Origin: Oikopleura dioica | Taxonomy: Eukaryota > Animalia > Chordata | DNA length: 64,000 nucleotides | NCBI GenBank assembly: GCA_907165135.1 | Contig: OU015568.1 | Span: 13,950,001 to 14,014,000 of the forward strand | Reading direction: 5' to 3' | The notes under the pieces: model-generated | The model's database searches: none | Told to the model about the DNA's origin: nothing | Seen by the model: only the letters and a program-made list of their open reading frames with translations | Made by a program: the position numbers and the translations under genes | In this document: one piece after another, positions 9,225-57,698 of the stretch | Numbering within the stretch: position 1 is the stretch's first letter | Layout of the letters: each line of letters opens with the position of its first letter

Positions 9225-9242
9225 ATTTAAAAAAGTTAAAAA

Positions 9243-10442: not shown

Positions 10443-10525
10443 ATTTTAGCCGATCGGAACACTAGCTACCTCTCATCTGAATTATTTCAAATATTATTGT
10501 TTTGTTTTTAATAGTTAAAATTAAG

Positions 10526-11717
<1,192 letters not shown>

Positions 11718-21804: not shown

Positions 21805-24800
21805 ATGTCTTTCGCAAAATCCAAACGAACAACCTACTTCGACGACGTTACCAAAAATAAAGAGAATCTTCCTGGGCCCGAGCGATACAACCCTCAAAAT
21901 GACCAGGTGAGTTTTAATTAAAAAGGAAAAAATTGCTAACCAACATAAATTTCACTAATCTAATTCAGTCAATCTGGGGCTATTACGGTCAAAATGGCCA
22001 GGTTTGTTGAAAAACCCAAATCACTCAAAAATTGGTGTATCTTTGGTGATCAAATAAACTTGCTTGATTGTACTTGAATCGATAACTAAAAAATTATTTA
22101 AAAAAATCTACATTTCTTACTAACCATTCGAACCGTTTTCCCGAACGACATTTAACCATCTTTTAGAGAGTCAAAGGCGGCTTCCAGTACCGCGACCAGA
22201 GCATGATGGACATAAGCAGCATCAGCGGAGCCTACCAAACTGACAAGTCTATTCTTGGTCCTCCTCAATCGACCCCGTCAAAAGAGCCCTTCAAAATCGC
22301 AAAACGAGGGACCAGAAAGTCAACAGTTTCAAAATCGCTCGAAATGAGCATGTCCCAAGAAATGGCCAAATACAAGGTCAGTATTTCGAAAAAAGTTATC
22401 TTTAATCTTGAGCTGTTTTCAGGAGCTCGAGTCGGACCATTTTCAACTGAAACAGCGCTATCAGAAGATCTCCGATTTGAAAGACGAGCTCGAGGAAGAC
22501 TACACGCGAGTAAAGGAAGAAGCGCAAAAAGTTCCGCGACTCCAGAAGCAGCTTGAAGCCTTACAGGACTCGCTAGAAATCAGCAAGACAAAGGTAAGCT
22601 ACCTTTCTTTACTTATTCTGACAGAAGATATCAGGGCGAAGAAGTAAAAATCCTGGAAGATCAGCTGCGCCAGTTGAAAGAAAAAGAAGACGAGACTTTC
22701 AAACAGATCACAGAAAAGGAGTCTCAATTGGTCACGCTCAGAGGTCAAATCGTCGCGCTAGAAGGAAGAATTACAGAATCAGAGGTAAGAGTAAAAATCG
22801 GTGTTTTCATCGTTGATTTCTTATTTACAAAAGAAAAGAAAACTCATTCATCCTGATTCATTTTAAAAAACTTTTCAAGGTCCAATTACAAGAACACAAG
22901 GTTTGTATATTTTAAATGCATGATATTTTCTGATTCATCATTTTACACCATTTATTTCAATCCCACACGGCGCTAGCTACAGGACTTAACAAACTGTAGC
23001 TTGTGCCCCCTGGAATTCACTCATTTTTATACTTTCAGAAATCCATTACCAATTCTTTTTCAGACAACGCTGAAAAACAAAAGCGACGAGTTACAAAAGG
23101 CGAACCTGGCCAACTTCAACCTGGAGCACAGAATCGCTGAGCTCGAGCCACTGAAAGAGAATGTCGCCTTGCTGAAAGAGGACAACGCCGTGTATGCAGC
23201 AGAGATCAACGGGCTCAAGCAAACGCTCGAAGAAGCGCACAAGACGTTGAAAATAAAAGAGTCCGAGAATGCATCGCTCAAGCAGAATATCGGCTCCCAA
23301 GTGAGCGAAACTGACTCGCTTGTGAAGAAACTCGAGCAGATGCGTTTTGAGCGGGATGAGTGCAAGGCGCTTGAGAAGGATCTCAGAGAAGTCCAGGTAA
23401 ATTTGATTTTGACCACTGCTTTTCTAAAAGCTAACTTTCATTTATAGGGAACTACCGAAGCAAAAGTGCGAGAATTAATCGCTTCTGTCGCTGAAAGAGA
23501 AGACCAAATAAAAGTCCTCGAGCAAGAGATCAGAACTCATCAAACCGCGTTGACTAGTGCTTCTGAAAAATCCGCAGCTTCTGAGGAATCGAAGGCGGCG
23601 CAGATCCAGGAGTTGAGCAACGAACTCGCAGGGTTGAAAGAAAACTTGAGCGAAAAGTCAGCCGAGCTTGAAGAGAAACTCTCCGAAAATCAGAAAATCA
23701 GCGAGGCTCTCGAAAATTTGAAGGCAGCTCTTCTCCTGGAAGAAGAAAAGCTCAAAAAAGCCGAGGAAAGCCATGAGAAGCAGCTGAAGGCGAATTCTGA
23801 AGCTCGAGATTTAGAAATAGCTGAATCAGAAGCGAAGATTTCTGAACTTCAAAGCGCTGCCCAAGCGAAGGACTTGCAGATTTCGCAATTCGAAGAATCG
23901 ATCAAGGTAATTATCTATTTAGCACTTTAGTGCTTTTTAAAACTTACTTTACACTGAAAATTTAGGCAACTGCGGCTGAAAATGTCCACTTACTCGAGAA
24001 GATCGAACAATCAGACTCTGCAATGAAAGCCTTCGAGGAGAAGCTCAACTCGGCTGAATCTGCGCAATCTGATCTTTCTTCTGAAATTGCTCGCTTGAAA
24101 GCTGAACTTGAAGAAGCCAAGGCGAAGAATGTCTGTTCTTCTCAAGAGTTCACGGCGCTGAAGGAAGAAGTCTCGACTCTTAGGGCGGCATCGAAGGATC
24201 ATGAAGCGAAATTCGTGAAAATTGTCAACGAGAAACGAGAAATCGCAAAAGAAGCTGAAATTCTTCGAGAGCATGGGTAAACCGTTCGCGATTTTCTCAA
24301 TTAACTTTCTTTCCTAGCGCCAAATACAAGATAAAGCGAGACAATCTTCGAGCCATATACGACGAGCAGCTGCAGAAGACAGAGCAACTAGAGCTCTTCA
24401 AGAAGGATCACGAAGGCACTCTGGCTGCGCTCCAGCAAAAGCTCAAGGCGGCCGAAACTGAGAAACAAAACTTCCGAGCTCAGTTGACCGCTGCCGAGCG
24501 GAAATTGGCCGACGCTACAGATCGGTAAGTAAGAATACTCGATAGTAGTATGTACATAAGCTTTTTTCAATAATGGAGATAATGTAAACAAAGAAAGGTA
24601 AATAATTATAAATATTTATGAAATATATAAACAAGTTAAAATATTTATATTAAACGTAAACATATGATAAATATTAGTAAACTAAATATAAAATATAAAC
24701 ATGAGTCTTCAAAACAAAGGAAGCTCAAAAATAACATAAAAATTTCTAGAAGGTTATTTTAATAACCAAGTTATTCAAATAACTTGTTATTGAAATAACT

Positions 24801-27800
24801 TGTTATTCAAATAACTTTTTATTACGATAACCGTTATTCAAATAACCTTCTAGAAACTTTTATGTTATTTTTTACAAAAACTGTCCCTTGGATGAGACTT
24901 TTCAAATATAAACATGAGTAGGATTTGTATCGGGAAGGCGGCGCGCGGCGTGGCGCTTTTCGCCCAAAATGACGGAAATCTATTTCGCGTAACTTGAAAG
25001 ACTTACAGTGGAAAACCTATGAATATATGAAAAAATTTGAGGCTTGTTCATAAATTGACCTTAAAAACTTAACTTTCCATCAAAAAAGCGTAGTTTTCTC
25101 GAAAATTAAACAAAAACCTGTTTTTTGTGTTTCTAACCGACCTTCCGAATCTCTGATTTTGAGATATGTGAAAGAACAACTTTCTAGTGTCTGTTAAAGT
25201 TTGAAGACCGGGGAAAAACTAGAAGGCTTTCAAATGTCCCGTTAATGGAGTCTTGTATAATAAATTTTTTTCAGAAAAGATTAAGGTGAACAAGTCACAG
25301 AGCTGAATAAGATTCTTTGCCTCTTTTTCATGTCTGTTTTGAATTATTTATTTTCAACTAAAATATTTTCTTCAATAATTTCGCTTGCGTCAATGTTTAC
25401 GACCAGTGTTATTTTTATAATCATAATTGTTTAAAGAAAGAAAAAATAATTTTTGGCTCTACTACAACCGTTTTAAGTTAAAATATTTTAAAACAAAATC
25501 ATTGCCAAGTTATTGATCCAGTGTTTATTGTTGTAAATAAAAGGAGCGGTGAAAGATATGATCGCGTAATTAAGAGAAAATGTCAACGATGATAAGCGGA
25601 GAAATTCTTCCTCAAAAAGAGTTTGCATACCCTTTTCGTATATTGCTAAGTGGATCATCTGGTGCTGGAAAAACTTATATTGCAAAGCAAGTTCTGCTGA
25701 ACAGGCATCTGTTTCAGAAGAAAACAAAGCGGGTCCTGTATTTTTATCCCTGTTTCCTTGAAGAAAAACCCGTTCAGTGGGATGATCTTGGAATTCCTGT
25801 TAGCTATCGCGTCGGTATCCCATCACAGGATGATATTGATGAGATGATGCCCCATACAACGATTGTTCTTGATGATCTTTATGAAGAAGCGATTCAAAGT
25901 CAAGCTATAGATCATCTTTTTCGAGTCACAAGCGGCAAGCGAAGCCTGAACGTTATGATTATGACTCAAAATAATTATGCTGCTGGAAAATTTGGTCGTA
26001 ACATTCGTCTGAACTGTAACGCAACGTTTCTCTGCCGAAACTGTCTAGACGGAACAATCAATAAGAGAGTTTGCAATACAGCTGGGCTGCAAAAAGCGTT
26101 CAAGAGAGCGTCCGAAGATATCAAGAACAAATCATATCCTTACATGTTTCTTGATCAATCGCCTCGAGGTCATGCCTCAAGCTACCGGCTGTACACGGAT
26201 ATATTCTCAAAATATCCTGTTGTCTACTCAGTCACCGGTATGAAGGCTTGCATCGTACCCTTCAACGATTTCAAGCAAAACTTCAACATTATCGAAAGAG
26301 AAAATACTTTCGAAGCAACAGCGAAGAAAGATGACGAAAAATACTCATCGTGCAAAACAATCGAAACATCAAGGGTTAAAGCAAAAACAAGATGTGACAG
26401 CTTTACAGATGACTCGTCAGAGTCGGAGGTTGAGAGGAAAAGAACCAGAAAACGACGAAAGAGATCTGTCCCCGAGAAGAAATCAAAGAAAAAGACAAAG
26501 AAATCCAAGCGAAGACGACCATCAACTTCCTCCGAAAGTGAAACATCCTCAGCAAGCTCAAGCTCAGGTAAAGAATCAAGTGAATCAACAAGCGACTCTG
26601 AAAAAACAGAAGAAGACAGTGACGGATCAGATTCAAGCCCTGTACGAAAACGTTGCAAGCGCTCCAGCGTTCTCAGCGAAAGTAGCGGAGTTTCTCAGGC
26701 AGAATAAAACTCATAGTACTCACCGTCGAATAACTAAAAAACGATTTCCCAGAAGAAAAATCATAGTCGACTCGCCATTCAAAATTTTTATGGGTGACTT
26801 GATTGAATACAAGAAATTCAAATTTTCAAATCGTCAGTATGCTTATGTTCTACTTATAATCGATTGCTTCTCTCGCTTTATATGGACACGACCTGTAAAA
26901 ACAAAAGGAGGAATCGATGTTGCTAACGCTCTCAATGATATATTTCAAGATTTTCTCGAATGGCCTAATTCTCTTATCACAGACGAAGGCTTGGAATTCT
27001 ACAATGTCAATGTAAAAAAAATTCTTGATCGCTATGGAATGCATCACTATAGTATCAAAACAAAATTGAAAGCGAGTATGGCAGAACGAGTCAATCAAAC
27101 CATCAAAAAACGAGTGGAGCTGTTTATGAAATCAAACAAAACTAAAAATTGGATCGATGTTCTTCCAGAAATAGTCAAAGGCTACAATTCCACTCCTCAT
27201 CGAGCCATTGGAATGGCACCAAGCCAAGTCTCACATGAAAATAGAGCACAGGTCTTCGCTCATCTCTTCCCGGATTTCGATTTGAAAGTCAAACCAAGAC
27301 TCAAAATTGGGAACGTTGTCCGAGTAAAAATAGAGAAGGGTATCTTCGAAAAAGGATATACACAAAACTGGACAGACAAAATTTACGTCATAATCGATAT
27401 CAGACAACGAGCCGGAGTAGTTTGGTATAAAATTGCAGACGAAGAAGGAAATAGACAACCTGGAATAAAGTACTACTTTGAGCTTAACTTCGTTGCAGAT
27501 GATCTTGAATCTTTTCGAGACAATGACCAAGGAGCTGAAAGTTCCTGAAATTTTCTTTGAAAAAAAATCAAGAGTACAATGTTCAAATTATAAGCGCTGT
27601 CTGTAATCTGATGACGACTCCGCGTGACATGGACATTGCTTTCATAACGTGTAACTCAATTGCTTCTTGCTATGGAGAACCGAATACGCTGATGATGGGT
27701 CAAATCCGTCCAAACGACAGGTGGTGCCATTTCTCCGACCAACGCTCCGTTACCTTCCCTTTAAACATATATAACTGGCGGGATACACGATTTTCAATCG

Positions 27801-30800
27801 ACTTAGGCAGTCAACACATCATTCAACACTTTTCACTCCAGATACTTATCACAACAAGAGAATGAAAACAATCATTGCCTCGCTTGAAAATCGTCCAAAA
27901 AAATGGTTTCCAAAATCTCAATCCGGCGCGGGCAAACGAAAGTCAAAAAACGGTCCAACAAAACTCAAGCTAACACCAGGTCGAAAACATCCAAATACCA
28001 AAACAAAGAAAAAACGAAATCAAACAACAAAAGATTTGAAAAAATCAAAGAAATCATCGAAAAAGAAAAAAGCATGAACTCATACCTAATTGCGAAACGT
28101 TTAGAACGAGTTGAACATTTTCAAGGTGTTTACTCCATTGATACTTTACCCAAAATTGAAAATTTTCCTTCTTTTATTGTTGTCAACTTATCGCCTGAAA
28201 TTTCAAAAGGCTCTCACTGGATCTCATTACGAATTATAAAGAGTAAAATTGAAATATTTGATAGTTTAGGCCTTAAAAAATATCCTACGCAGCTTTTTGA
28301 CTTTTTTGGTGATAAAGAAACCTTTTTTTATAAAAGAACCCAGTCAGACTCGTCATTTTATTGTGGTTTTTATGTTTGCTTCTTCGTTATTTTCCGTTCT
28401 CTTTATTCACGACAGAAACTTTCTTCTCTCTTTACTCATTCCTTTACTGTTAACGATCAATTACTTCTTTTCAAACTTTCTCAACTCTGGTGACTAAAAT
28501 TGGTGATATAATTGTCTAACTTTTTGCTCTTTTTAGACTGAAATCATGACAGAAGTTGAGTACTACGACCAAAAAGTTGTTAAACGGCATTATCCAAGAG
28601 AAGAGGACAGCTTGACCGGAAGGCTTAGCTTTAAGTTTGACGCCGATCCGAATCTTTTCCTTGTGAAAAATAAAATTGCGATTCATTTCACAATCGAGCT
28701 TGACAAGAATTATATTCCTTCAAATGGCTTTGCTAGCAAACAGTTCGGAAAGACTGAAGTTGCGGTGAATTCTCAGATTATCGATAACTCAAATTCAAAG
28801 TAAGGACTTAATTTTTGTTCTGATAATTATTTTTTCTTTAGTTCTCACTACTTGTTGGCAGACTACTTGACCAAACGTGTCAATTTCGACCCACTTTATG
28901 TTAATTCCGCATTCCAGATTGAGGGGTACTACGATGAATACAACTATGAGAATCTTGTTGATAGTGACTCAAAGAAAATGATTATAAATGGACGACGCCC
29001 ACAATGTTACGAAACATCTAACGGAAATTATATTTATGAACTTATCTTCCTTCCGACTCATGGTTTTTCATGGAGAACAAACCTCTTCCTCAAAACACAG
29101 ATCTTTCAATTACACTTTATCGTCTTAAACATGAGTTTTCGACAATGTTTATCGGAGAGAATGAAACTGATATGCTTCCAGCAGGAGAAGTCCTTAAAAT
29201 AACTGATGCCTACGCTATTGCTGAATACGTGTCATCGCCGAGCCTGAGAAACTACTTTGGGAGAATCAAATCAAAGCCAATCACATATAAATTCAATGAT
29301 ACTTTGATAACAACAATGAGTTTGCCAAAAGGAAGAAAAAATGTGCAACTTCTTAATGTGACTGGGGGAAATACCCCTGCATATCTGTTCTTTGGACTGA
29401 TTCAAACAGAAGCTCTTCATGGATCTTCTAAAATTGATTCTTCGAATTTCAGCTTTTTCAACAATCTTGTTCAAGTGAATGTCATGTTGAATGGTCAATC
29501 TTTAAATGGATATCCTCAGGTTTATCTTTTCAATTTCTTATTTTTTTTTATCCTTATCTTTAGAAAATCACAAATCAATATCCGATTCTTCCCTACTGGA
29601 AATATCTGGACACGCTTGGGCGAGTTAGTCAAGCTGATTTGTCATATGTTGTATCAATGGAAAACTACAAAGTGAACAACATTTTTGCTCATGAGTTTGA
29701 AGGAGAAGAAATCTCACAAGGCTGGCTATCTTTCTCTTTCGATTTTAGCACACCACTTGAAGATGATTACTCAATCGTTATTTGGTCTATCGTCTCGACC
29801 AAGCTCACGATTGACGAACATAAACAAGTTGAAAAAACCCTTCTTTGTAAGTAAACATATAATTAATCACTGGTTATGAATAGAGCACTGATTAACCAGC
29901 GCTTTAGAACTTCTGGTCTTCTTTTGCCCGCTCATCTCATTATCAAAATGTTTGTCACGATCAAAACTTTCACTTTTCGCTCCTACAATGGGGGCGGCTT
30001 TTTCAGGGTCAAGGGAACTTACATTCCTGGTTTTGAAACTGACCTTGATTATTCACGACCGACCAAAGAGATCAACTTACGACTGTTTGCAAAGACTGGT
30101 GATGAAGTCTCGAATGTCTTCCAAGCTCTCCAAATGCACACAGAATCACAACGTCCTGCAGATCTCTACACCACTTCTGATGCCAAACAATCCGACTGGG
30201 AAAAAGAACACAATGTCAAGCCTTCCTACACTTTCCGATTCAATCGTCCAGTCGACCAGAAAATCTAATTGTTTCTGCTTCTTTTGATCCCTCTCTTGAA
30301 AATTTCTTTCCTTTTCTTTTCAATTTTTTATTTACTCGAGTAATAAATTTGTTTGGTGATTATCTCTTTGGTCTTTCTTTGAAGCAAGTTTCTATTTACA
30401 AGCAGGCAATAATCAAAATTTCTGGTTCAGTAAAAAAATATGCTCTCGTATGCCATCAGCTTTTTCGAACCTTATGTCGAAGTTTTATTCACCCGTCATT
30501 CGAAAAATGTCCTTCTTGAATAAAATCAAAAAGTTTTTTTGCGGGTATGCTAACTCGACTACAGAAACTATAGAAGTTACTGCTGAAGAAGCTGCGATTA
30601 TGAAAGGTCACAAGAATTACGAGGATCATAGACATCCAGAATGTCTTATCTGTGCAATGCTTGATGGATATGTAGCGAAACGTTTGAAGAACTGAACAAA
30701 ATCATTTTCCATTTTTTTTTAAGAAAAACAAAAATGTCAAAAAAAAAGAAACTGCGGTGTATTCTTCCTGTACATAAAATTGGTGATAATAAAATTGGGT

Positions 30801-36800: not shown

Positions 36801-39800
36801 GATACTCGTAGAAATTGATTTCTCTCTTCATTTCAGCAGAAATTTTTGAAAGATTTCTTGCAAATACATCTTTTGGTCCATCAAAAATATCAAACCCGTC
36901 AATCTTGAAAGCAAAATCTAATTTCGATGAGCATTTTTTTGCTCTCACTAATTTTTCCAAAACAGTTTCAAACGTGTAGTAATAAAAACAATCTTCCTTC
37001 TCTTCCACAAAGATGCTTGTTTTAGTTATCAAATTATCGTCAGCAAATTTGATCTTGATTGACTGTTTCGACATTGATCTTACCCGCACAATTTCAAGTT
37101 GATAAAACGCAATAATTTCTTCATTTGTTTTAGAAGAATTACAAATTGTCAATGACTGACAGTGTGCTAGAAATTTTCTGTCAGAAAGCTTACCATCTTT
37201 GAAAAATTTCTTGAATTTCTCTTTGTGTTTTTGTATCTCTCCTAAAGCTATCCAAGGATTAATTCCCGGAAAAAAGAAATTAAAGCGTTTCATAAGCTCC
37301 TTACCCTTTCCGGTTCATTTTATCTCAGACTTTTCCAGCAGACTGATTTTATCCGATTTGCATGCTCATCAACGCTCATTGATGGCGCTAAAATAGGAAG
37401 TATAAATTATCGAAAATATTTCTGTTCAAACTGAAAAATGCTCGCTGTTAAGCTTGTCAAAATAACAGACGAAGATGCGATAATTTACTGTCGCATATGT
37501 CGTAAGAAGACAAGTCTATCTCCGACATTCAGAGAAGTCACTCGTGCTCAGCTTGAAACAAATTCAGTGCCTGGTGGACAATGTAAAGACTGTTTCGGGA
37601 GATGGTACTATCCTTATACAAAATCTGAATGGAAAGAATTTATGGATAACGCAGATGAATTCGCCGAGGAGTGTTTTGTTGCTCGATCACCGCTTCTCCC
37701 GAGATTACTTTGTCGAACTTTTTCTCCGGGTGCCTGCATTGGTACAATTATAATAAGATCTCGCCAAATCAAGCTTGCATCACGAGAAATCTCGGAGGAT
37801 GAAAAGAAAAAATGCGTGATATGCTGGGAAGAAAACAAACAAATGGTAGTTAGCAAGACTGATATTTTGATAACAAATTTTAGGATCCTACACCCTGCCT
37901 TCACTACACGTGCGCTGATTGTCTAAGAACGCTCAAAGCGGATCCTGAGGAAGAAAGGAACAACAGATGCCCTATATGCCGGACTGATTTCGAATACCGA
38001 AATATCCGCCAAATCATCCGAGCTGAACGACGCCTGTAATCATCGTCATTGTTGTCTCCTTAGTTTCTTTGTTCTTTTTTTCATCCAATTTCTTGTGCAA
38101 ATTTCGACAAATAAATTCATTAGATCTAAACAAAATCTTGTGTTTCTTTATCTCAGCTTTACAATTTAGTCTCTCAAGTATAAGGCCCTTTTGAGTCGAA
38201 GTATTCAATTAAAATATTCGCAAACTTAATTTACTGAGATTACTGATATTCTTGAACTCGCAAAAACCTTTTCTGGAAATTCTAAAAGACCTTTTGTGAA
38301 ATTCGAAAAAGACCAAGGTCCGAGAGCAAGAAAACCTCTGTTAAAAACTCAAAAACTGTCCTCAACTCAGTAATACCTCCGGAAACTGGCCTGATCCTAT
38401 GAAAACCTCGAAAAACTGGTCCGAGCCTAGAAATACCTCCAAAAACTGACCTTAGCTCAGTTATAACTCTGGAAACTCGCCTGTTCCAAGTAAAACCTCT
38501 GGAAACTGGTCTGAGCCGAGTAATACCTCTGGATACTGGTCGAGCCCAGTTATACCTCCAAAAGCTGGTCTCAGTTCAGTAATACCGTCGGAAACTGTCC
38601 TGAGTCCAGTCAATTCCTGAAGACTGCTCTTCATCGAACAAGGCCCTTTATTTGCTTGAGTCAATCCGTAAACTATAAAATATATTTTTCCTGTCATTTT
38701 ATTTGCAATAAAGATGAGAACCTTTTATCTTTGAGAGCTTGTTTGTCTTTTATTTTTGTTTTAAAGGCACATTTTTCTACAGGAAGCTTATTATCACGAA
38801 TGTTTTTCTTGGCGGTTTGAAGAAGCTGCGTCTTGCTCTGGATGAATCTAAATAAATGATTAGGTTTTTGCCTGCGAATTTGTTTTCTTACCTAATAGCG
38901 TTTCTGTCTGTGACAGATTTGTAAGGGTTGAGTGCGCGTCCGTCGGCGTTGTGGTCTGTTGGCCTCTAATTTGCGTTTATTTTCTGTTTGGAAGAAAGCT
39001 TATTTTACCTTCAGCTTGATGATCCTCAATTGCCGGGCGCTGAGTGATATCCATTTCGTCCTCACTCTCCAATTCTTCGATTCGATCCGGATTCCGAATC
39101 ATTCGAATTCTTCGGGGCTCACGTTGTCTCTGTCTATTTCTTCCGTCTATTGAAAACTTTAGAACTCCTTTGAAAGATTTGATTTCTTACTTTCGTAGAC
39201 GATATAGAAGAAAAGTAATAGGATGAGAATAGCGATGACGCGATCATTCGTGCGCACACGTCCTTTTTGTATGTCGACATCGAATTCGAAGTCATCGTCT
39301 GGATTTGTACATTCACCCTCTGGGTTCGAATGATTTCTGCTCTGATCGTCTTGCTGTCTGCCTTGATCCGGGAATCCCTCTCCGTTTCGGCCATTGTTTC
39401 GATTTGGGCCACTGAATCCTTTGAAGAATGGAAAGAACATTTCTGAATGGAAAAACTGTCTACAATATTCTAGTTTTAGTTTCATATCAGTATTCAAAGA
39501 CAGCTTTTCTCCTTTAAGTGGCAGGTTTAAATGTCGAGTGGAAGTGGTGCTGAGATCGGCGTGTAGTGAACTAAGAATATATTTTATGAAGGCGAAAAGG
39601 AATGATAGAGATTACCGTTTCTTGTTGGCTTAGGTGTCTTCTTCTTCTTGTGGCAGAGGATGAGGATCAAGGTGAGAAGGAGAATAGTGTTGAAGGCGAG
39701 GAGGGTGATGACGATCATTTCAACCATGGAGAAGGTTTTTGGCGTGTTGTTTTCGTCTATTCAAGGTAAGAATCTTTTTGTCTATCTACTTTTACCAAGT

Positions 39801-42800
39801 TGGTTGACGTTTGAAGTTTCATTGATAATGGATGACGTAGCAGTCGGTGGTGTCCGTGTAGAGGTGATATTTGCCGACTCGTTACCGACTATTTATGTAA
39901 AATTCTGTTTTTCATTAATTCTTACGAAGACGGCATAGCTCGGAGACGGTTCGTTCATCATAGTAGTCCCATCGATAATCTTGGTCAAACTCCGACGAGT
40001 CGTCCATCGCGTCACGATTTTCAGTCTTATTTATGAAAGAATTTTATGCAATCTCTAGCGATCTGAGTTTCTTTCACAGCCTAAACATTGTCGGGGTTCT
40101 GGGTCGACGGAACAAGAACCAGACAAGGTTGATGAAGGGGAAAATCGCGAAAGCCAGTCCAGCAAGGTAGATGATGAATGTAGCGAGAAGACCAACGCAT
40201 TGAATCGCGAGAAAGACAAGGATCGAGGATTCGATGAAAGTGAGACCTTTTTTTAATTAAGTTAAAAATGAAAGAGTTTTCTGTTTTCTTTTTACCTCTT
40301 TGCTTGTTGACTTGCTGCTCAAGGTCCGAATCGTGAACGTCGTCGCCTTCGTAATTGTCCATTAGCCCAGATTACCGATTCAGTCTTTTATGCAAAAAGA
40401 TGTTATTTATTCACTTTCTTTCTAATTTAATCATTCAAAAAACATTCTTTTCACAGTCCTTTTTCAATCACCAACTGTCGATCCATTCTTGCCAGGATAC
40501 TTGAGGGCACCTCCATTCGTCCTTCTTGTCCTCTTTGTCATCTTCTTGCTGTTCTGTCTGCGTGTTGCTATCCACAGTCGGTTTCCGTCCGTCTTTCTTT
40601 TGCCGTCTTTCATTCAGAATCATTCGTTCTTCGTCTGCGCGTCTGTTTTGCAATTCGAGGTCGCGTTCTTCTAAGAAGACTTTTTTAGTAATAAAATAGG
40701 CTGATCTAACTACCTTCATTATCACAGCAATGCAAAACAAGCACTCTCCGTAAGTCAACCCAGAAGGAGATTATTCGAACTCGTCTTTTGTAAATGAGGA
40801 TTGCGAGCATGACCACTATTATAACCGAAACTGGGGCTAGAATGAAAATGAGAATGATCTTTCTATGTAACTCAATTAACCCGCTATTCCGACAGCGATT
40901 ATTTTTCCATTGAAAATTTCGTCGGGTTCGATTGTATTCGTTGAGGTACCATTGGTAACGGTCGAAAATGTGTGAGTGGTCGACGTTGATCCAAGAGAAG
41001 TTGTAGATGTTGTGTCCGTTGTGTGACCGGGGAACGTCAAAGGAGGGTGGATTGTTGGGAAAAAAAACATTCTTAACTCTTTTCGACTTTATTTTAACAT
41101 AATTTTCAGCTGATTTTATTCAAAATAGGGCATAGATTTTGAGATGAATTTAGTTTGCTTGAAAGAACAACTGCCTGAAACCAAGTTTACATCAAAATCT
41201 ACATCCCAGTTCAATTATCTTCAGCGAAAAAAAAAGAAATTTGTAAAGCAGGTCAGATAAAAAGTCGAAAACAGTCTTTGAGCGTCAATTTGGCGGCTAA
41301 TTCATATCGGTTATTATAATTTTGGCAAGTGGAAGAATTCTTTGAACGTTAATTTAACTCTTATTTCATATCGCCTTGTCTTATTGGTTGTAAATAAATG
41401 ATAAACGCAAAATTAAACCTTTCTTGTTTCTTGAGATGCACTCTATCGTCCAAAGCCTTTGTTACGCTATATTAGAATTTTATTAATCTGTTTTTTCTTT
41501 TTTTTTTTTGTTGTAATACCTTGTTTCGGATAAGTCGCATGTGGACGAATTTTGCGTGGAACATTTTGTCGTCTCTATAAGAATGTCTCTTTAGATTAAT
41601 ATATTAAGCCATTTTAAGTCAATCAGTTTTGAATGAAGAAAATAAAAAGGTTGATTGTCTCGTGATCTTGTTTGCGCTGTATGGCAACTTCAAGTTATGA
41701 TCTGGTGATGAACCTGCATCAGGTGGTTTGATTTTATTGCCTACGCATTCGAGGGTGAAGGAGCGTGCTCAAAACTCGCGCGCCCTGCGGTTCTCGCTAC
41801 CGATTCGCCGATTCATCCCCACGCGCTTAAGACTGCGAGTAACAGTAAAGCGCGCGCTGCTACAGATTCTCCACTCGGCCAGGCGCCAAAAACTTGCATT
41901 CTTTACACATTTTTGATAAGCGTGAGAAACCACCTATTCCCACGAGAACAAAGATGATAAACCTGCAAGATCAAACAAAGATACTAGATACGAATGAAGA
42001 GAAAGATCTCATAAGCAAAATCGAACAGGGAGATCTTGCTGCCCTCATCAAAATTCAATCTGAATTAGGTACTTTTATTTTCATCTATTCATTTATAAAA
42101 CATAATAGATGCCAAGCAGGCAGCTTCGACTTTCATCATCAAGATCACTAACGGTCAACTTGCAGAGTTGCAAAAAATCGTGACAGGTAAATTTCAATCG
42201 TGAAAGAAAAATGACTTATCTCTCCTCAAGAAAAGATCGCGTCTAAAATGGATACTACCACGGAGGATCTGACTGAGGTAATGGAAATGGAAACTTCCGG
42301 CTCTGCTAAATCTGACGATATGGACACAAACTAGGTAAATTTATGTCTCTTTTCCGATCAGAAATAAGCTCTTTTTACGGTTCCAGCTCAAGCAACCATT
42401 ATTGAGTAATCATCCGAAGCATAAAAACAATTCTCCTCTCCTCGTTGATTCCGACAATCACCACTTCATTGAAAATTTTCTCCAGTTTGTTCCTGACGCT
42501 ATTGATAATAGATAAATCCGCTCGTTAATAACTATCAAAACCGCTTATCACACCAGTTCATTTTCTTTTGAGTTCTTAAAGATACCTGCGCCACTTATCG
42601 AAAAAGTTCTTCCCTCTTTTATAACCTGCTATTATAATTCAAATGAACAGTTCCTCAATAATTTAATTGAAATAAAAAAGAAACTCGGTCATATATCTAC
42701 TTTGTTTTTTTTTTTTGTTTTATTTAAACAAGAGTATTATGGACGGCATCAAAAGGTTCTGAAATCGTGATATTCTCACGTCGGTCAGGATTTTTTCGGG

Positions 42801-45800
42801 AAACATTCTTCTTTTTCTCACAGATGATCATACACAATTTTGTGTAGAAGCCAACTGTGATGATAAGACCAATGAAGGCAACGCCGGAAACCCCAGTAAA
42901 GAAACGATGCTGGATTGAAAGAAGTTGATCTTTGAGCTCGCAGATAACATCGAAAAAAGGAAACTCTTCCGAAAGTGGAAGTGAGCGATTCATTTTTTTT
43001 TTCTGATTATTTTGGACCTTATCGTTGCATATTTATGGACTTTTCAGTGCTTATTATCAGTGCTTTTTTCAAACTTGGCAACAAAATGACAAAGTCAAAG
43101 TTTTTTAAACACCATTTTTATTTATAATTTTTTCGGTAAACATGAGTAAATAAGGACAAACACGAGATAAAGAAAGAACACCAAGAAACGCATAAAGAAA
43201 GGTAGAAGTTAGAGTTGAGTGTATGTTTTTATGGGCGAAATTGTGGGAGAAGGATCGGAGTAGGCTTCTTGTTCATAGATGGTCTCTTCGATAAACTCTA
43301 TGGCATCTTTTGTGATAATCCCAAATCTGAAACAGTCATCAAGTGTTTCACCTAAGAGATATGGGCTGAGACAGTGATCAATGATCGTGTCCGGCGTACC
43401 TCCGCGTGAAGGATTTTCCAGTTCTGATTGAAGTTGCTGTCTTTCTCTCTCCTCTGCTTCGGCAACCAACCCATTGATCATGTCATCGTCAACACTGTCG
43501 TCGTCGTCAAAGGTATCAGTGAGATCGATAACTATGAAAATATATTTATATATCTTTTTTTTTAATAATAGATACCTTCTGACCCGTCTTTCATATGACC
43601 ATCGACGTTGATTTTCCGATCAGGAGAGCCTGTTAAGTCAATAACTGAATCATGATAAACAATCTGGTAGAAAAATGTCTCTAACCTTGATCGTTTTTGT
43701 TTTCAGCAGGTGCGGCGAAGCGGATAACGCTTCTCCCGAAGCGCTGGTTAGGATCGTAGTCAGGTGGAGGTGATTTACCGATGATTTCCCATTGGGATGG
43801 ACTCCAGAGTTGCCATTTTTGAGACTTCTGCTGATCATCTTGACGTCGACAGCTTGATTCAGGACTGCCCTGGATCAGTTGAGAGCTTGGTCCAGGAGTG
43901 TCCTCGATCAGTTGAGAGCTTGGTGTAGGAGCGTCTCCGATCAGTCGTGAGCTTGATCTAGGTGTGTCTTCGATCAGTTGAGAGCGTGGTGATGGAGCGT
44001 CCCCGATCAGTCGAGAGCTTGGTCCAGGTGTGTCTTCGATCAGTCGAGAGCTTGGTCCAGGGGTGTCTTCGATCAGTTGAGAGCTCAACTCACCTTCGGT
44101 TTGAGAATTTTGTCCTGAGTGATGGTCTTTGTTATTGACATCATGAGCAGGCTGAAAGACTTCTTCTTCCGACTCGTAGTCCTCAACGTTTGAATAATCG
44201 TCACTCTCTAAAGCATCAGGCTCATTTTCGGACTCATCTTCCTGTTGATTGTTTTCTTCTAAGTCGTCAGCGGTATTCTTTTGCTTTTCTTCGTGTCGTG
44301 TATAACCGAAACTATCACGAGTTTGCTCATCCTCGATGTCATCGAAAACGTTTCTTGGTTGGACAGCTTCTCGGCGGACTCGTTTTGAAGGTTGTTCCGC
44401 GGCTTCTTCCTCTCGCAGTCTCTTTGAGGAATGGGCTTTTTTCTGCTTGAGTTTATCCTGACGCGCTTCCTCTGAAGACTTGGTTTCCTCCTCGGAGTCA
44501 AAGACCAAACGCCGTCTCGCGCCTAGAAAGTTTTAAAACTCTTTCGTAAACACCATGATATACCGCGAAGATTCGACCTCACATATGAGAGTTTTTCCTT
44601 CCGGGGAGCTTTTGGAATGGAATTACCTCGGGTGTGGGGAGGTGTGGTAGGAACCCATTCTTCATCACACGAGTCCTCTTCAGAGGAAGACTCATAAGCG
44701 CTAGAAACGTCACAATCGATCTCACTGCTAAATTCTTCGAGAATGTGTTCGAGCCTGAGGTTGCACTGGGAGCTTTTATCAGTCATATCAAGTGTCCCCC
44801 CTGAAAATATGATAAGATAATAAGAATCGTATTTTTGTCTACTTACGTAAATCACGAAGGACTGGTTCTTTGTCCTCGACATTTGCGAGTTCGTCCTCAA
44901 ACTCGCTAGCAAGTCGGTCTGTTTCATTGCGGTAATTAATATCTGCTTTTTGTATCTTCTTGAGAATTTTCAAGCACTTAGCCATTTTAAAATTTGACAG
45001 ATAGGTCAAATTTTGCACGATATTTATACGGACTGATCTTCAGCGCCGACGTAGATTTTTTGGCACACTTGTTTATCAACGCCAATTACCGGTTGCTTTG
45101 AAAATTCAAGCGATCATTTGTTCAAAATGTCAGTTTATTTTCCAGCGTTTGAACAAATTCACAATATTTTATTGACTCTGGACCTATATTGACTCAACTC
45201 ATGCATATTTTTCTTTGATGTATTTATAAACAGTGTCAAAGGACGTTTCCTCTTTTGAACTGCATGAGATCTGGTCTAAAACGAAAGACCACTTGTAAAA
45301 ATATCGCCTTAGCTCAATAATATCTCTCAGAAATCTGTCCGATCCCGAAAATACCTCAGAAATCTGTCCGATCCCGAAAATACCTCAGGAATCTGTCCGA
45401 TCCCAAAAATACCTCAGATATCGCCCCGATCCCAAAAATACCTCAGAAATCGCCCCGATCCCAAAATACCTCAGGAATCGCCCCGATCCCAAAAATACCT
45501 CAGGAATCGCCCCGATCCCAAAAATACCTCAGGAATCGCCCCGATCCCAAAAATACCTCAGGAATCGCCCCGATCTCAAAAATACCTTTCAGAATCGGTC
45601 TGATCCCAAAAATACCTTCGGAATCGGCCTGTAATACTTTCAAAAGCTGGTCTGAGCCCAACAATACTCCGTTTCAGCTTGAGCTCAGTCCACATGCTGG
45701 ATAAAATCTCTCATTCCAATAACACTCTGTAGCAGCTAAGAACTCGATATTGTTGCTCCTATTTCTGAGCTGGACTTCTGCGACCCTGATAATTTTCCTT

Positions 45801-47962
45801 TTTAACTTCATGTTAACACTTTTTTCTTGAATAGAAAAACGACTTATTTATATTTGAGATAATTTATTAAGGATATCCAATGACGATGACAATAAATAAA
45901 TATCAAGCTTCATTTTACAGAAATAGAAACATTGAGAGTAGCTTACAAAGGAATAAGTGCTTTAGAGTTTCATTTTACTTTTTCTTAGAAGTATAAGTAC
46001 TGTTCATGCTATTCATCTTCTAGTTTCATTTTATGTCGAGTGTGAAGATTCTTGCCGCTCGAGCGAACTTGATTCGAAAATGAACCAAAAGAGGGAGCCA
46101 CATTCTTTGAGATAACCCACTGAGTCCGTCTATTTGTTTTACTTCTTTGAAACGGAAATCGATTAGTTACTTGATCCTTTGAAAGATGAAATTTTGATCC
46201 TGATGATTAGTTCTCATAAAAATGAATTTCTTACTATGTTTGGATGGCTAATGTTACATGTAATAATGAAGAGCAAATAATGAAGAAGTTTCATCATTTT
46301 AGTATCCAGAAAGTTTTTTCATTGAAACTTTATCTGAAAGAACGAAATAGATTTCCGTCATTTTGGGTGAAAAGCGCCACGCTGCCCGTCGCATTCCCGA
46401 TACAATCCCTACTCATGTTTATATTTGAAAAGTCTCATCTCAGGGTCAGTTTCGGGTCTCAAGGGATTCGCCTGCCCCCGAACAGGCGGGTGACAAAAAT
46501 GATCGGACCAAGCGGGTGACAAGCCGGCGATGCTCGAACTGCCCATCTCCGCAGGGAACAGCGAGTCTCGGTTGGTCTTATTTTTACAGAGGATCAAGAT
46601 TATTTTCGACCCTAAATTTTTAACGGTAAGTTCTCCTTTGTCAGATTTCTATTGCTAGAAATTTACTCTTTTCTGTTAAGGCTACTGAAAAGATCTCTGG
46701 CAGCAAATTTCCAGAAAAGTTATGTTTTTACCATAAAATGATGAAAGATAAGAAGAGATCAGCTGGATAATTAAAAAAGACTTTTCAAACGGAAAAAGAT
46801 CACACGACAGCTAAATTATAATTAGATTACAATAGGATGAACTTTGATGGAGGTTTTATTGAATAAACTCAAGTTTTCAGAAGTTTTGAGTATGATTTTC
46901 GGAATCTCCATGGTCGAATTAGTATAAATCACTTTTTCCTGAAAATTTTTGAGCAAAAATGCTCATGGCCCTCCGAAAAGTGAGCCTTGTGCAGATCAGC
47001 TGGACCGTCGCAACAAACGTCTGATTATGATTTTCCTCGGTGGATTAGCGATTTCCCACTGAAACTCGCTGTTTTTGTTAATAAACAACATAAAAGTTTC
47101 TAGAAGGTTATTTTAATAAGTTCAAGTTATTTGAATAACGGTTATCGTAATAACAAGTTATTTGAATAACAAGTTATTTCAATAACAAGTTATTTGAATA
47201 ACTTGGTTATTAAAATAACCTTCTAGAAATTTTTATGTTATTTTTGAGCTTCCTTTGTTTTGAAGACTCATGTTTATATTTTATATTTAGTTTACTAATA
47301 TTTATCATATGTTTACGTTTAATATAAATATTTTAACTTGTTTATATATTTCATAAATATTTATAATTATTTACCTTTCTTTGTTTACATTATCTCCATT
47401 ATTGAAAAAAGCTTATGTACATACTACTCTCGATGAGTCGGTTTTGACATGTTTTCAGCACTACGGAAATCGAAGATCTCCACGTTAAATTGGCGGAATC
47501 AGATGCCATGTGCGAAAAGTGGAAGGCGGAGTACGAAGAGCTCGAGAACTTCTACGCGCCGATCCGAGCTGATCTCGCTAAATTCGCTGAAGAGAGCAGA
47601 CACTGGGGGTAAGTCAAATCAAAAGTTAAAACGTTGTTACATGAACTGTTCAGCTCTGAAAACGAAAAGAAGTCGAAGGAGTTGGCAGCTCTGAACTCGA
47701 AATTGGCGGACCAGATGAGCCACGCCAATCACAAGCAAAAGATCAAGTACATGGTAAGTCAATGAATTCAAGAGCGCCTTGTTCACATTCCTTTCAGAAC
47801 AAGATCAAAGACGAGAACGAGCTGCTCAAGACCAAACTGTCCTTCGCCGAGTGTCAGATGAAGAAGCTCAAGAAAGAAAACGACGCTCTTCGTGATGACC
47901 TCAACGTCGTCCGAAACGTACGACGCTTCGACCCCAAAAAGGCTTTCCAAGGAAAGCAATAA
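21805..47962 (+). CDS. HMMR: Hyaluronan-mediated motility receptor (RHAMM) coiled-coil spindle protein, split by the Polinton insertion in intron 24525-47458
   Basis: N-terminus MSFAKSKRTTYFDD...PGPERYNP, long coiled coil, C-terminal HANHKQKIKYM-NKIKDENELLK...RRFDPKKAF motif; exons join in frame across the insertion (DR|TTEIEDL). Confidence 0.85.
24544..24878 (+). repeat. Left terminal inverted repeat
   Basis: Reverse complement of ~47072-47428; the right copy has an extra ~19-nt segment and a few substitutions. Confidence 0.93.
25580..26707 (+). CDS. Polinton A32/FtsK-like packaging ATPase, with Ser/Lys-rich tail overlapping the integrase frame
   Basis: Walker A GSSGAGKT, Walker B IVLDDL, then SGKRSLNVMIMTQN typical of Polinton ATPases. 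Confidence 0.92.
   Translation: MSTMISGEILPQKEFAYPFRILLSGSSGAGKTYIAKQVLLNRHLFQKKTKRVLYFYPCFLEEKPVQWDDLGIPVSYRVGIPSQDDIDEMMPHTTIVLDDLYEEAIQSQAIDHLFRVTSGKRSLNVMIMTQNNYAAGKFGRNIRLNCNATFLCRNCLDGTINKRVCNTAGLQKAFKRASEDIKNKSYPYMFLDQSPRGHASSYRLYTDIFSKYPVVYSVTGMKACIVPFNDFKQNFNIIERENTFEATAKKDDEKYSSCKTIETSRVKAKTRCDSFTDDSSESEVERKRTRKRRKRSVPEKKSKKKTKKSKRRRPSTSSESETSSASSSSGKESSESTSDSEKTEEDSDGSDSSPVRKRCKRSSVLSESSGVSQAE
26331..27548 (+). CDS. Polinton retroviral-like DDE integrase
   Basis: FMGDL, YVLLIIDCFSRFIW, LITDEGLEF, ASMAERVNQTIK, YNSTPHRAIGMAP; C-terminal VRV...FEKGY...NWT module. Confidence 0.95.
   Translation: MTKNTHRAKQSKHQGLKQKQDVTALQMTRQSRRLRGKEPENDERDLSPRRNQRKRQRNPSEDDHQLPPKVKHPQQAQAQVKNQVNQQATLKKQKKTVTDQIQALYENVASAPAFSAKVAEFLRQNKTHSTHRRITKKRFPRRKIIVDSPFKIFMGDLIEYKKFKFSNRQYAYVLLIIDCFSRFIWTRPVKTKGGIDVANALNDIFQDFLEWPNSLITDEGLEFYNVNVKKILDRYGMHHYSIKTKLKASMAERVNQTIKKRVELFMKSNKTKNWIDVLPEIVKGYNSTPHRAIGMAPSQVSHENRAQVFAHLFPDFDLKVKPRLKIGNVVRVKIEKGIFEKGYTQNWTDKIYVIIDIRQRAGVVWYKIADEEGNRQPGIKYYFELNFVADDLESFRDNDQGAESS
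27499..27865 (+). CDS. Candidate minor capsid (penton-like single jelly-roll) protein; needs a 1-nt correction in the A8 run at 27560-27567
   Basis: MILNLFETMTKELKVPEIFF + EKNQEYNVQIISAVCN...AFITCNSIASCYG...FPLN...FSIDL...FSLQILI; beta-strand pattern and position between integrase and protease; family assignment is inference. Confidence 0.4.
27862..28077 (+). CDS. Small highly basic protein, candidate virion core protein
   Basis: 71 aa, 27 K+R versus 2 D+E, contains QSGAG; ATGA overlaps with both neighbours. Confidence 0.6.
   Translation: MKTIIASLENRPKKWFPKSQSGAGKRKSKNGPTKLKLTPGRKHPNTKTKKKRNQTTKDLKKSKKSSKKKKA
28074..28493 (+). CDS. Adenain-like cysteine maturation protease
   Basis: GSHWISL (His), IEIFDSLG (Asp), TQSDSSFYCGFY (Gln, Cys); ATG at 28074 within ORF 27903-28493. 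Confidence 0.92.
   Translation: MNSYLIAKRLERVEHFQGVYSIDTLPKIENFPSFIVVNLSPEISKGSHWISLRIIKSKIEIFDSLGLKKYPTQLFDFFGDKETFFYKRTQSDSSFYCGFYVCFFVIFRSLYSRQKLSSLFTHSFTVNDQLLLFKLSQLW
28546..29854 (+). CDS. Polinton major capsid protein (double jelly-roll), ~407 aa, two introns (28800-28841, 29520-29563) and a 1-nt deletion in the T5 run at 29064-29068
   Basis: Joined frame gives ...KPLPQNTDLSITLYR...GGNTPAYLFFGLIQTEALHGSSKIDSSNFSFFNNLVQVNVMLNGQSLNGYP..., matching the recalled Polinton MCP pattern; size and position next to the protease fit. Confidence 0.78.
29876..30268 (+). CDS. Polinton hypothetical protein, 130 aa
   Basis: ORF 21 nt after the MCP stop, same strand. Confidence 0.5.
   Translation: MNRALINQRFRTSGLLLPAHLIIKMFVTIKTFTFRSYNGGGFFRVKGTYIPGFETDLDYSRPTKEINLRLFAKTGDEVSNVFQALQMHTESQRPADLYTTSDAKQSDWEKEHNVKPSYTFRFNRPVDQKI
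30450..30695 (+). CDS. Polinton hypothetical protein, 81 aa (HxxHxxCxxC motif)
   Basis: ORF with DHRHPECLIC; small, so uncertain. Confidence 0.4.
   Translation: MPSAFSNLMSKFYSPVIRKMSFLNKIKKFFCGYANSTTETIEVTAEEAAIMKGHKNYEDHRHPECLICAMLDGYVAKRLKN
30960..31358 (+). CDS. Polinton hypothetical protein, 132 aa
   Basis: Open frame with CPVC near the C-terminus; last gene of the plus-strand block. Confidence 0.5.
   Translation: MFLQKVESFSCTSYRSGVLLNIVGICGDDENSSQKVRLHYTSVNVTNNVLAFEKIAIMNKNRKSGKESWIPVQILGTAPKKVDDEQNNIVSSYFVDFKDFTLKYERQDLSDDCPVCKTKDVFRWIQKEDNEL
31546..31700 (-). repeat. 29-bp tandem array (GAGGTATTTTTGGGATCGGGGAGCTCAGA), ~5 copies
   Basis: Direct reading; the core is the reverse complement of the 45320-45640 unit. 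Confidence 0.95.
31755..32590. repeat. 19-bp minisatellite (CTCTGACCCCTTGACAGGC variants) with higher-order blocks
   Basis: About 40 units; variant ACTGGCCTTAGTCCACCCTG recurs at multiples of the unit length. Confidence 0.95.
32720..33265 (-). CDS. Polinton hypothetical protein, 181 aa, downstream of pPolB
   Basis: Clean ATG-stop ORF with TATAAA 24 nt upstream. Confidence 0.75.
   Translation of the reverse strand: MPFYQSERVDLEAIRKEYGGTYIPLSKEELEYFEKTEKMGQLQNRVIIAPPKPGRIVEHAHVRLLINKNFDLFNVVDDLFEFISPPFRFGIDFAFLLENPVTEDPDSRFRFVWPQISTSLPIEPNLIKNKSSKKEFLQNIPDWTDIPRLVDITHQNQSMFRKSGYNITKLLTCSLYITKMK
33379..37293 (-). CDS. Protein-primed family B DNA polymerase (pPolB), five introns, 1-nt deletion at 35946-35950; true start uncertain
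   Basis: ExoI FVTFDIET (made by splicing), ExoII FNSSGFD, FKDA, motif A DFNALY, motif B KTIGNCGGFGK, motif C YCDTDS, PGLLKSE, KRSTKGV; introns 36393-36434, 35427-35472, 35156-35201, 33919-33961, 33708-33750. Confidence 0.95.
37438..38039 (+). CDS. RING-HC (C3HC4) E3 ubiquitin-ligase-like protein, 187 aa, one intron (37846-37883)
   Basis: After splicing: CVIC-x11-CLH-x2-CADC-x17-CPIC; extra N-terminal CxxC pairs (CRIC, CKDC). Confidence 0.85.
38350..38620 (+). repeat. Degenerate ~30-bp tandem array (AATACCTCYGGAAACTGGTCTGAGCC-like)
   Basis: About 8-9 diverged units sharing AATACCTC with the other arrays. Confidence 0.85.
39159..39497 (-). CDS. Polinton small protein with one hydrophobic segment (VIAILILLLFFYIVY); likely spliced to downstream exons
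   Basis: ORF plus a GTAAG donor right after the hydrophobic stretch and an acceptor near 39146. Confidence 0.45.
   Translation of the reverse strand: MNTDMKLKLEYCRQFFHSEMFFPFFKGFSGPNRNNGRNGEGFPDQGRQQDDQSRNHSNPEGECTNPDDDFEFDVDIQKGRVRTNDRVIAILILLLFFYIVYESKKSNLSKEF
39582..39970 (-). CDS. Polinton candidate type-I membrane glycoprotein (Ser/Thr stalk with NES/NIT/NET sequons, TM IVITLLAFNTILLLTLILILC, KKKK)
   Basis: Exon fragments read by hand; one junction is off by one base, possibly the A5 run. Confidence 0.45.
40710..41070 (-). CDS. Polinton candidate mucin-like single-pass membrane protein, intron 40837-40880
   Basis: Thr-rich HTTDTTSTTSLGSTSTTHTFSTVTNGTST; splicing yields TM IIAVGIAAPVSVIIVVMLAILIY followed by KRR. 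Confidence 0.55.
41954..42334 (+). CDS. Polinton hypothetical acidic helical protein, 98 aa, two introns (42069-42108, 42187-42230)
   Basis: Both GT-AG introns keep the frame to a stop at 42332-42334. Confidence 0.65.
42724..42993 (-). CDS. Polinton small single-pass membrane protein, 89 aa
   Basis: FFTGVSGVAFIGLIITVGFY hydrophobic segment then basic KKK; TATA-like motif 39 nt upstream. Confidence 0.55.
   Translation of the reverse strand: MNRSLPLSEEFPFFDVICELKDQLLSIQHRFFTGVSGVAFIGLIITVGFYTKLCMIICEKKKNVSRKNPDRRENITISEPFDAVHNTLV
43209..44985 (-). CDS. Polinton acidic disordered protein with RxL motif, 11-aa repeats and two VIDLT SIMs; at least 4 introns
   Basis: Start MAKCLKILKK at 44985; introns 44801-44846, 44523-44563 and 43532-43575 keep the frame; the junction near 43665-43730 is unresolved. 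Confidence 0.65.
43850..44090 (-). repeat. 33-bp coding tandem repeat (SSQLIEDTPGP x~7)
   Basis: Direct reading of the DNA and of ORF 43681-44508. Confidence 0.9.
45320..45660 (+). repeat. 29-bp tandem array (CGCCCCGATCCCAAAAATACCTCAGGAAT), ~10 copies
   Basis: Direct reading; inverted relative of 31546-31700. Confidence 0.95.
47072..47428 (-). repeat. Right terminal inverted repeat
   Basis: Reverse complement of the left TIR, ending ...GTACATACTACT. Confidence 0.93.
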
Positions 47963-53400: not shown

Positions 53401-53750
53401 TGGCGAAGAATCGACGAGCTCCTGAAGTCGACGAAGATCCCATTCAGGTGCTTTCCCAATCGTAAATTTTTCATAGAAAAGGACGAAAATGATCGATACG
53501 TCTTAGCCCCTTGGCGCACCGCCATTTTTCAGTTGACGTTGATCCCAATCCTTCTGATCCGTTTTTTTGTCTTCTAATATCGATATTTTGACACATGGCC
53601 CCTATTTAGAAAAATGGCCGATCACAATTCACACATGCTGTTTTTTGTACCTGAAAATTTCGTATATCAGTTACAGTCGAGTAATTTTTCGCGCGAATCG
53701 AAGCATTTCGAATTTCGCGCTCAATTGGCTTCGAATAATTTTGTAATTTG
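50461..53750 (+). CDS. VPS33A: Vacuolar protein sorting 33 (Sec1/Munc18 family), spliced; ~1.2-kb intron containing a MITE; 3' end approximate
   Basis: LIWDPNLTAPFTLFSDVKLLQEYGVEKM, LLLIDRSTDIVSPLLTPTSYNALL, DPFFNEIRN, KAFVARMPQL...HSDLA. Confidence 0.82.
51719..52659. mobile_element. Non-autonomous PIF/Harbinger-type element (941 bp)
   Basis: TIR GGGTCTAATCTAGTGCGTAAGGGG and its reverse complement; 3-bp TSD TAA (51716-51718, 52660-52662); no transposase. Confidence 0.9.
52022..52290. repeat. 56-bp tandem repeat (~4.8 copies) with nested GC hairpin
   Basis: Unit TCAAGCCCCTTAAATTTAAAAATCAAGGGACGGGGCTGAAACGGCCCGAAGGGCCG. Confidence 0.95.
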
Positions 53751-53872
53751 AAAACTTATTTTTATTTACGGCGATCAAAGAGGCATTTCTTGGAAACGAA
53801 TCAATTTTATTTACAGAAATATTTCCACTGAACTTGTAGAACTCAAATTGTCAATTTGAAAGGATGAATAAT

Positions 53873-56771: not shown

Positions 56772-56809
56772 AGGTCAATAATTTCTTTTCTGAATTTGCA
56801 TGATTTAGA

Positions 56810-57650: not shown

Positions 57651-57698
57651 TTAATTTAAAAATCCTGAAAAGAAGTTAGCGAAATCCTCATTTATAGA

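Follow-up and report, generated by a model that had tools for sequence, protein, structure and literature searches.

A Maverick or Polinton spreads as a linear copy that is made by its protein-primed DNA polymerase B (pPolB) and inserted by its integrase, with a 6-bp duplication. The end motif of these elements is (AG)3 or (AGT)2 (PMC8097293), and Mavericks have been listed among the transposons of the chordate Oikopleura dioica (PMC5240408). Maverick or related core genes are called intronless in three papers, and in the reports on intact animal Mavericks or their core genes introns are mentioned in cargo genes only (PMC8097293; 10.1101/2022.07.12.499685). A description of conserved introns in Maverick core genes was not found among the openly accessible listings and passages that this search covered, and the accessible passages of PMC10748475 and PMC8502044 contain none on introns of such kind. 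Three further systems bear on the locus described here: i) the maverick-polinton-like proviruses of dinoflagellates, full-length Maverick-like elements which do contain introns, these being repeated introner families that mostly arrived after integration (PMC11957031); ii) the eri-6/7 Polinton of C. elegans, a polymorphic insertion splitting a host gene, now present as remnants and an inversion that is rescued by trans-splicing (10.1101/2024.01.15.575659); iii) the Tor retrotransposons of O. dioica itself, whose insertions are young, polymorphic and mostly hemizygous (PMC4402516).

The window, i.e., the whole stretch of 64,000 nucleotides that was analysed (O. dioica contig OU015568.1, positions 13,950,001 to 14,014,000), contains an element inside the eighth intron of HMMR (Table 1). 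It shares with animal Mavericks/Polintons the 6-bp target-site duplication (TSD), the (AGT)2//(ACT)2 ends, the terminal inverted repeats (TIRs), the two modules, pPolB, integrase, ATPase, protease and both capsid proteins. It differs from them in that pPolB and the major capsid gene carry five and two predicted introns, respectively, at lineage-conserved positions; intronless core genes, a described trait outside the formal Maverick definition, are thus not what this element is predicted to have. Unlike those of the dinoflagellate proviruses, the introns are unlike one another, while their positions are common across deeply diverged elements. In contrast to eri-6/7, the HMMR locus holds one full-length, clean insertion in a mini-intron; TIR-derived repeats affect splicing in C. 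elegans, and by prediction may do so at HMMR too. The insertion resembles those of Tor in being young and polymorphic, but Tor is an LTR retroelement and the element here a self-synthesizing DNA element. As a whole, the locus probably represents an intron-bearing full-length Maverick that inserted, likely recently, into the 43-nt intron 8 of HMMR, with a filled allele that is likely mostly truncated and an empty allele that covers for it.

Table 1. Features of the HMMR locus and of the element in its eighth intron (positions in the window).
Feature	Position	Strand	Remarks
HMMR exons 1-8	21805-21906, 22167-22376, 22423-22593, 22635-22784, 23064-23396, 23448-23906, 23966-24276, 24318-24524	+	647 codons, coiled coil; frame chain
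HMMR intron 8	24525..47458	+	phase 2; empty = 43 nt, filled = 22,934 nt; donor and acceptor intact
HMMR exons 9-11	47459-47608, 47654-47753, 47798-47962	+	138 aa with HMMR_C/bZIP region
Left TSD copy CTCGAT	24538..24543	+	6 bp
Right TSD copy CTCGAT	47429..47434	+	6 bp
Maverick/Polinton element, by sequence	24544..47428		22,885 bp; ends AGTAGT...ACTACT
Left TIR	24544..24846	+	303 bp, 1 mismatch vs right TIR; internal palindrome, 16-mer repeats; weaker match on to 24987
Right TIR	47126..47428	-	303 bp
A32/FtsK-type packaging ATPase	25580..26707	+	Walker A and B; no intron
Retroviral-type integrase (rve)	26331..27548	+	overlaps ATPase tail; no intron; PF00665 E=1.2e-9, above cut-off
Minor capsid (penton) gene, predicted	27498..27865	+	frame break in homopolymer run near 27560
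Small basic protein gene	27862..28077	+	counterpart in L001
Adenain-type cysteine protease	28074..28493	+	His/Asp/Cys present; PF00770 E=0.0054, below cut-off
Major capsid gene (double jelly roll), predicted	28547..29854	+	predicted introns 28800-28841 (42 nt, phase 2), 29520-29563 (44 nt, phase 0); frame break in homopolymer near 29063
Three small ORFs	29876-30268, about 30453-30695, 30960-31358	+	first one also in L001
29-mer and 19-mer tandem arrays	31553..32590		between two convergent gene modules
Conserved 181-aa ORF behind pPolB	32720..33265	-	in 9/41 loci
Protein-primed DNA polymerase B (pPolB)	33379..37293	-	predicted introns 36434-36393, 35472-35427, 35201-35156, 33961-33919, 33750-33708; frame break in homopolymer near 35951
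Accessory region	37438..46300		ORFs, several candidate mini-introns, 30-, 33-, 29-mer arrays

CTCGAT is the only direct repeat of at least 6 nt found at the ends of the element and is present once in the empty allele, while the two TIRs agree at 302/303 positions. A 6-bp TSD, long TIRs and ends of the (AGT)2 type were all found; given this TSD, this end motif and six core genes, the element belongs to the Maverick/Polinton family and is, judged by its sequence, full-length. The earlier note had described it as virus-like, which the TSD, the TIRs, pPolB, the integrase, the ATPase, the protease, the major capsid and the penton bear out, but its Maverick identity and the predicted introns of its polymerase and capsid genes were absent from that note. 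Inside the right end, ~620 bp (46453-47070) are without a left counterpart, and beyond this segment the inverted match resumes (24878-24987 / 46343-46452, 91%). Dispersed copies exist, as TIR ends with other flanks were found in X1, X2, X3 and X5; depth in X1 was ~500 on the element core and 116-185 on HMMR, a ratio that is not a copy number.

Relatives of the element came from a metagenome scan, which yielded at least 41 related loci from at least 596 pattern matches (8 assemblies by contig name, near-duplicates included). The sense module (ATPase, integrase, penton, basic protein, protease and capsid) and the antisense module (pPolB and accessory ORFs) keep their gene order in the locus L001 and, for the matching genes, in L005 and L006. 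The ATPase matched PF04665 directly at only E=0.033, while relatives ~45-52% identical to it carry this domain (many of 106 relatives), and the His, Asp and Cys of the protease are kept in 3/3 relatives (L001, L005 and L006). The penton was assigned via its intact L001 relative (34% identical, same gene position), whose predicted fold (pLDDT 87) resembles the penton of mavirus (Z 10.0, rmsd 2.9, 117 aligned) and that of Sputnik (Z 9.2), pointing to a single jelly-roll penton. Single-sequence folding of the L005 penton reached pLDDT 39; comparison of the penton family with PDB sequences and Pfam found nothing useful, and that with BFVD gave mixed jelly-roll matches. A candidate assignment of the fragment as a Ulp1 protease (Atlas 0.90) was discarded after the fold search. 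The major capsid gene had no direct Pfam match; its class was judged on P0025, a public gene model with 97% identity over the query (Atlas score 0.97), whose Atlas clusters carry PF21738 on 65% and 24% of members, and by this route its product is predicted to be a double jelly-roll major capsid. Likewise, the window's own pPolB pieces had no Pfam match, while the relatives P0005 (46%) and P0008 (35%) pass PF03175 and are collinear along the whole gene. The accessory ORFs matched neither Pfam nor any of the 41 loci. Related 29-30-bp tandem arrays lie at 31553-31707, 38368-38618 and 45339-45626, the first and last being mutually inverted. The reading frame is broken by a single base at three places, each within a homopolymer (near 27560, 29063 and 35951), which would count against the window copy being functional; near 27560 and 29063 the homopolymers of the X1 contigs have, at full depth, another length than those of the window, so these two breaks may be assembly errors, or else private changes.

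The interrupted host gene forms a frame chain of 11 exons from 21805 to 47962, encoding 785 aa with a single terminal stop, 647 codons upstream of the insertion and 138 downstream. Its three downstream exons match HMMR_C (PF15908) in order (profile 19-53, 60-90 and 92-142), the last exon passing the cut-off at E=3.9e-10, and the HMMR architecture, an HMMR_C (bZIP) domain C-terminal of a long coiled coil, is present; exons 1 and 2, each scanned singly against Pfam, gave no HMMR_N match. It is via the C-terminal region that HMMR is targeted to the centrosome (PMC7226759). The contigs of X4, a run labelled DNA by guess and yet spliced, contain the seven upstream exon joints and run from 24524 straight into the first 30 letters of the exon at 47459, thus the two HMMR halves are one gene. 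X4 also splices out 21907-22166 directly, for which reason a candidate extra mini-exon at 21969-22001 was dropped. Much of what the earlier note had said of this gene holds: the intron is 22,934 nt long between the coordinates it gave, removal of 24544-47428 plus one CTCGAT leaves a 43-nt GT...AG intron with exons in frame, the gene is HMMR with its conserved C-terminal domain downstream, and same-strand genes lie inside the intron (25580-31358). Its phrase of a genome of mini-introns needs one qualification: other HMMR introns include ones of 260 and 279 nt and 2.4% of introns in O. dioica exceed 1 kb (PMC5240408), so long introns are rare, not absent.

Truncated HMMR is likely the main product of the filled allele, with the empty allele covering the loss. 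If exon 8 is read on past its donor, the very first intron codon brings a stop. Splice-site scores, obtained from a small matrix with 71 training introns (9 from the host and 62 from related loci), were at or above that of the true acceptor for 28 of the 1267 AG sites in the element, the first of them 225 nt from the donor. Among six acceptors checked, five led to a stop within 3-37 codons and one, the capsid acceptor at 28841, was in frame. By prediction, an HMMR transcript that enters the element would come upon this first-codon stop, numerous stronger sites of acceptor type and, on its own strand, the 3' ends of the module that runs from ATPase to capsid; most HMMR transcripts from the filled allele would accordingly end short of the last 138 codons. 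The 24 AATAAA motifs on the sense strand of the element are a weak argument, because HMMR's own transcribed region passes four without ending. Two coincidences of position were also seen: phase 2 is common to intron 8 of HMMR and intron 1 of the capsid gene, so that joining donor 24525 to acceptor 28841 would keep the frame (a one-in-three coincidence), and a weak GT at 47417 in the right TIR (score 3.7) lies exactly 42 nt before the HMMR acceptor, which would give transcripts leaving the element a mini-intron again.

Alternatively, the filled allele could be largely spliced correctly, with TIR pairing looping out 22.3 kb and the element genes silenced, which would make the insertion near neutral. 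The scores of the intron 8 donor (9.9) and acceptor (7.8) are those of ordinary host splice sites, and at 35-70 nt from the donor the AGs are poor acceptors, with scores of 0.6, -0.3 and 1.9; nevertheless, the 28 acceptor-like sites within the element would compete. A TIR duplex predicted at -436 kcal/mol could bring the true sites together, but each TIR (-48 and -56 kcal/mol folded alone) could fold on itself first. Introns above 1 kb exist in the species, and the filled junction occurs in two samples, although a same-strand module of at least eight ORFs lies within the intron and the eri-6/7 Polinton rearrangement of C. elegans, which has another geometry with inversion and trans-splicing, reduced the joined product to a median of 10% (10.1101/2024.01.15.575659). 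Moreover, the spliced X4 contigs carry the window's letter at 5/6 exonic sites that differ in an X1 contig (among the 40 of 363 rows listed), a weak hint that the window's haplotype may be expressed and spliced in X4. On balance correct splicing is an unlikely outcome, and a mostly truncated product from the filled allele is preferred.

The element's own predicted introns lie in two of its core genes. pPolB carries five predicted GT-AG introns of 42, 46, 46, 43 and 43 nt and the major capsid gene two, of 42 and 44 nt; all seven are AT-rich and host-like, and each either shifts the frame or contains an in-frame stop. Compared pairwise they gave 21-33 matches over 42-46 nt, no more than AT-rich sequence does, so the mutual similarity that would point to introners was not found. 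Spliced alignment of the 41 loci plus the window called 148 pPolB introns at 55 sites, the window's five included (median 49.5 nt), with at least one call in 40/41 loci; the remaining locus, L010, ends just past a GT donor at a shared site. As the spliced aligner favours splice signals, it was rerun blind to them: GT..AG could be placed within 6 nt for 120/136 long gaps, against 6/136 for the reverse complement, 28 for AG..GT and 82 for AA..TT, the last figure reflecting AT richness.

Positions of the window's pPolB introns are shared, by the same codon and phase, in 23/32 covering rows at site 967, 11/39 at 911, 4/16 at 441, 3/18 at 516 and 4/9 at 127, while random placement of sites never gave more than four shared in 2000 runs, under a null that ignores kinship, itself the proposed explanation. 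Of the loci with site 967, twelve have a pPolB protein 32-59% identical to that of the window. A quick tree of 34/42 rows and 15 added proteins, with SH-aLRT as its only support measure, put all 10 of its rows that have site 911 into a single clade of 15 rows (99) and all 11 that have site 883 into a different clade of 18 rows (93); site 967 occurs in both. Between the window and L001, identity by codon position in pPolB was 67/76/38% over 1013 codons, with all five intron sites kept. Capsid intron 1 was present in 4/4 covering loci and intron 2 in 2/7, and P0025 is spliced at both sites. Among L001, L005, L006, L018, L029 and L033, no introns were called in the ATPase (5 loci), the integrase (4 loci, one edge artefact) or the protease (3 loci), the artefact being a 3.3-kb 'intron' at profile column 6 of the L006 integrase, which was rejected. 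In viral_contigs, 0/7 pattern matches (single query) and 0/71 (alignment) were confirmed as pPolB relatives. P0008, an uninterrupted ORF nested among these loci, may be an intron-free element or a transcript. Within the groups of closely spaced sites 800/804/805 and 904/909/911, the site that carries the intron differs between clades. L015 and L030 have up to 13 and 7 pPolB intron calls with longer introns (40-1074 nt), which suggests hosts with other intron sizes. The element is thus a member of a Maverick lineage whose genes for polymerase and capsid contain predicted spliceosomal introns that are conserved and old.

It is very improbable that the gaps in pPolB and capsid are instead insertions gained after integration in decaying copies, rather than spliced introns of an active lineage. 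Spliced RNA of the element was not seen, cover of its core genes being near nil in X4 and 39/52 placed reads in X15 being less than 90% alike; the window copy has its three frame breaks, and dinoflagellate introners mostly entered viral elements after integration (PMC11957031). Against this, i) codon and phase are the same in relatives only 32-59% identical; ii) intron sites follow the clades of the tree; iii) a pPolB stop or frameshift was found in only 1/41 loci; iv) the seven introns resemble one another no more than AT-rich sequence does; v) near-identical TIRs indicate recent copying, with the introns already in place. Old introns inherited within the lineage therefore remain the preferred explanation.

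The HMMR insertion, in turn, is young and polymorphic. In X1 the empty junction occurs together with the filled junction on the left, which has 26 loose letters, and a contig at 47399-47476 represents its right filled junction, at a depth of 139 versus 252 on the shared flank and with 30 letters on the TIR side, one below the bridging rule. Its flanks resolve into two haplotypes at depths of 127/120 and 116/99. X1 thus fits one heterozygous animal, possibly the very one from which the window was sequenced. Another sample, to which both X2 and X3 belong and which comes from the same study as the X1 sample, shows the empty allele in X3 and the left filled junction in X2 (at least 255 exon-side letters), while X5, from another study, has the TIR only with a different flank and no cover at the insertion site. 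Of the checks that the earlier note had set beforehand, the comparison of empty and filled alleles, made here on contigs, found both forms in X1 at about half depth each. The choice that the same note had put, between skipping the element and truncating the gene, has less force than it suggested, since the allele is polymorphic and X1 carries both forms, so that splicing across the element is not required for viability. The misassembly it had named as a refutation fails, and an assembly artefact or a pair of HMMR paralogues is extremely improbable: no single record spans the element and homopolymer-length differences exist (small errors or private changes in the window), but the TSD and the inverted repeats are exact, short X1 contigs contain the empty allele as well as the two filled junctions, the empty allele and the left filled junction recur in the second sample, and the X1 flanks show two haplotypes at roughly equal depth.

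The rest of the window includes ordinary host genes, Pfam matches in the flanks at 632-13500 and 50461-58300 being to an AAA ATPase, a WD40 protein, two TCP-1/cpn60 pieces, TBCC, GCD14, Sec1, a C2H2 finger and PIG-S. A 3.7-kb element at 14834-18534 has two ~300-bp direct repeats that are 100% identical, TG...CA ends, a 4-bp GAAA duplication and no internal frame above 120 codons, and is by these features a young, non-autonomous LTR-type insertion. At 51613-52756 lies a 1.1-kb foldback element, in which 28-bp perfect TIRs surround a 56-bp tandem array and inner palindromes.

In the sequence of events that we infer, the integrase would have inserted a linear, pPolB-made copy at HMMR intron 8, duplicating 6 bp. 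The genes of the element would be transcribed in the nucleus, and the host spliceosome would be needed for its polymerase and capsid. Its introns may be a long-standing inheritance of the lineage, further ones having come or gone in individual clades; since the element is copied from DNA to DNA, any intron that it acquired would stay. A wider reading is offered tentatively and is rather doubtful: that of an old, widespread and still mobile clade of marine-animal polintoviruses, in which host-type introns in polymerase and capsid predate divergence to about one-third identity, which moves between hosts with its introns and which ORF-based surveys have missed, and in which the HMMR donor could also splice to the capsid acceptor at 28841, giving an in-frame HMMR-capsid fusion.

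By itself, the HMMR insertion is an ordinary young polymorphism. The locus could nevertheless show well, in nature, if splicing machinery adapted to introns of 40-50 nt is able to pass over 23 kb, and exonic SNPs separating the two X1 haplotypes exist (47565, 47573, 47594, 47690, 47720 and 47726). The introns of the element matter more than its insertion in HMMR. At least one large Maverick survey used a prokaryotic gene finder, assuming intron-free genes (PMC10120064), and with such gene finding too few members of a clade with introns would be counted, or they would be taken for degraded copies. Where intron positions are conserved, they would also provide an independent marker of descent versus horizontal transfer. 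Moreover, the predicted introns imply that the polymerase and capsid of this lineage would be made in the nucleus, under host splicing control.
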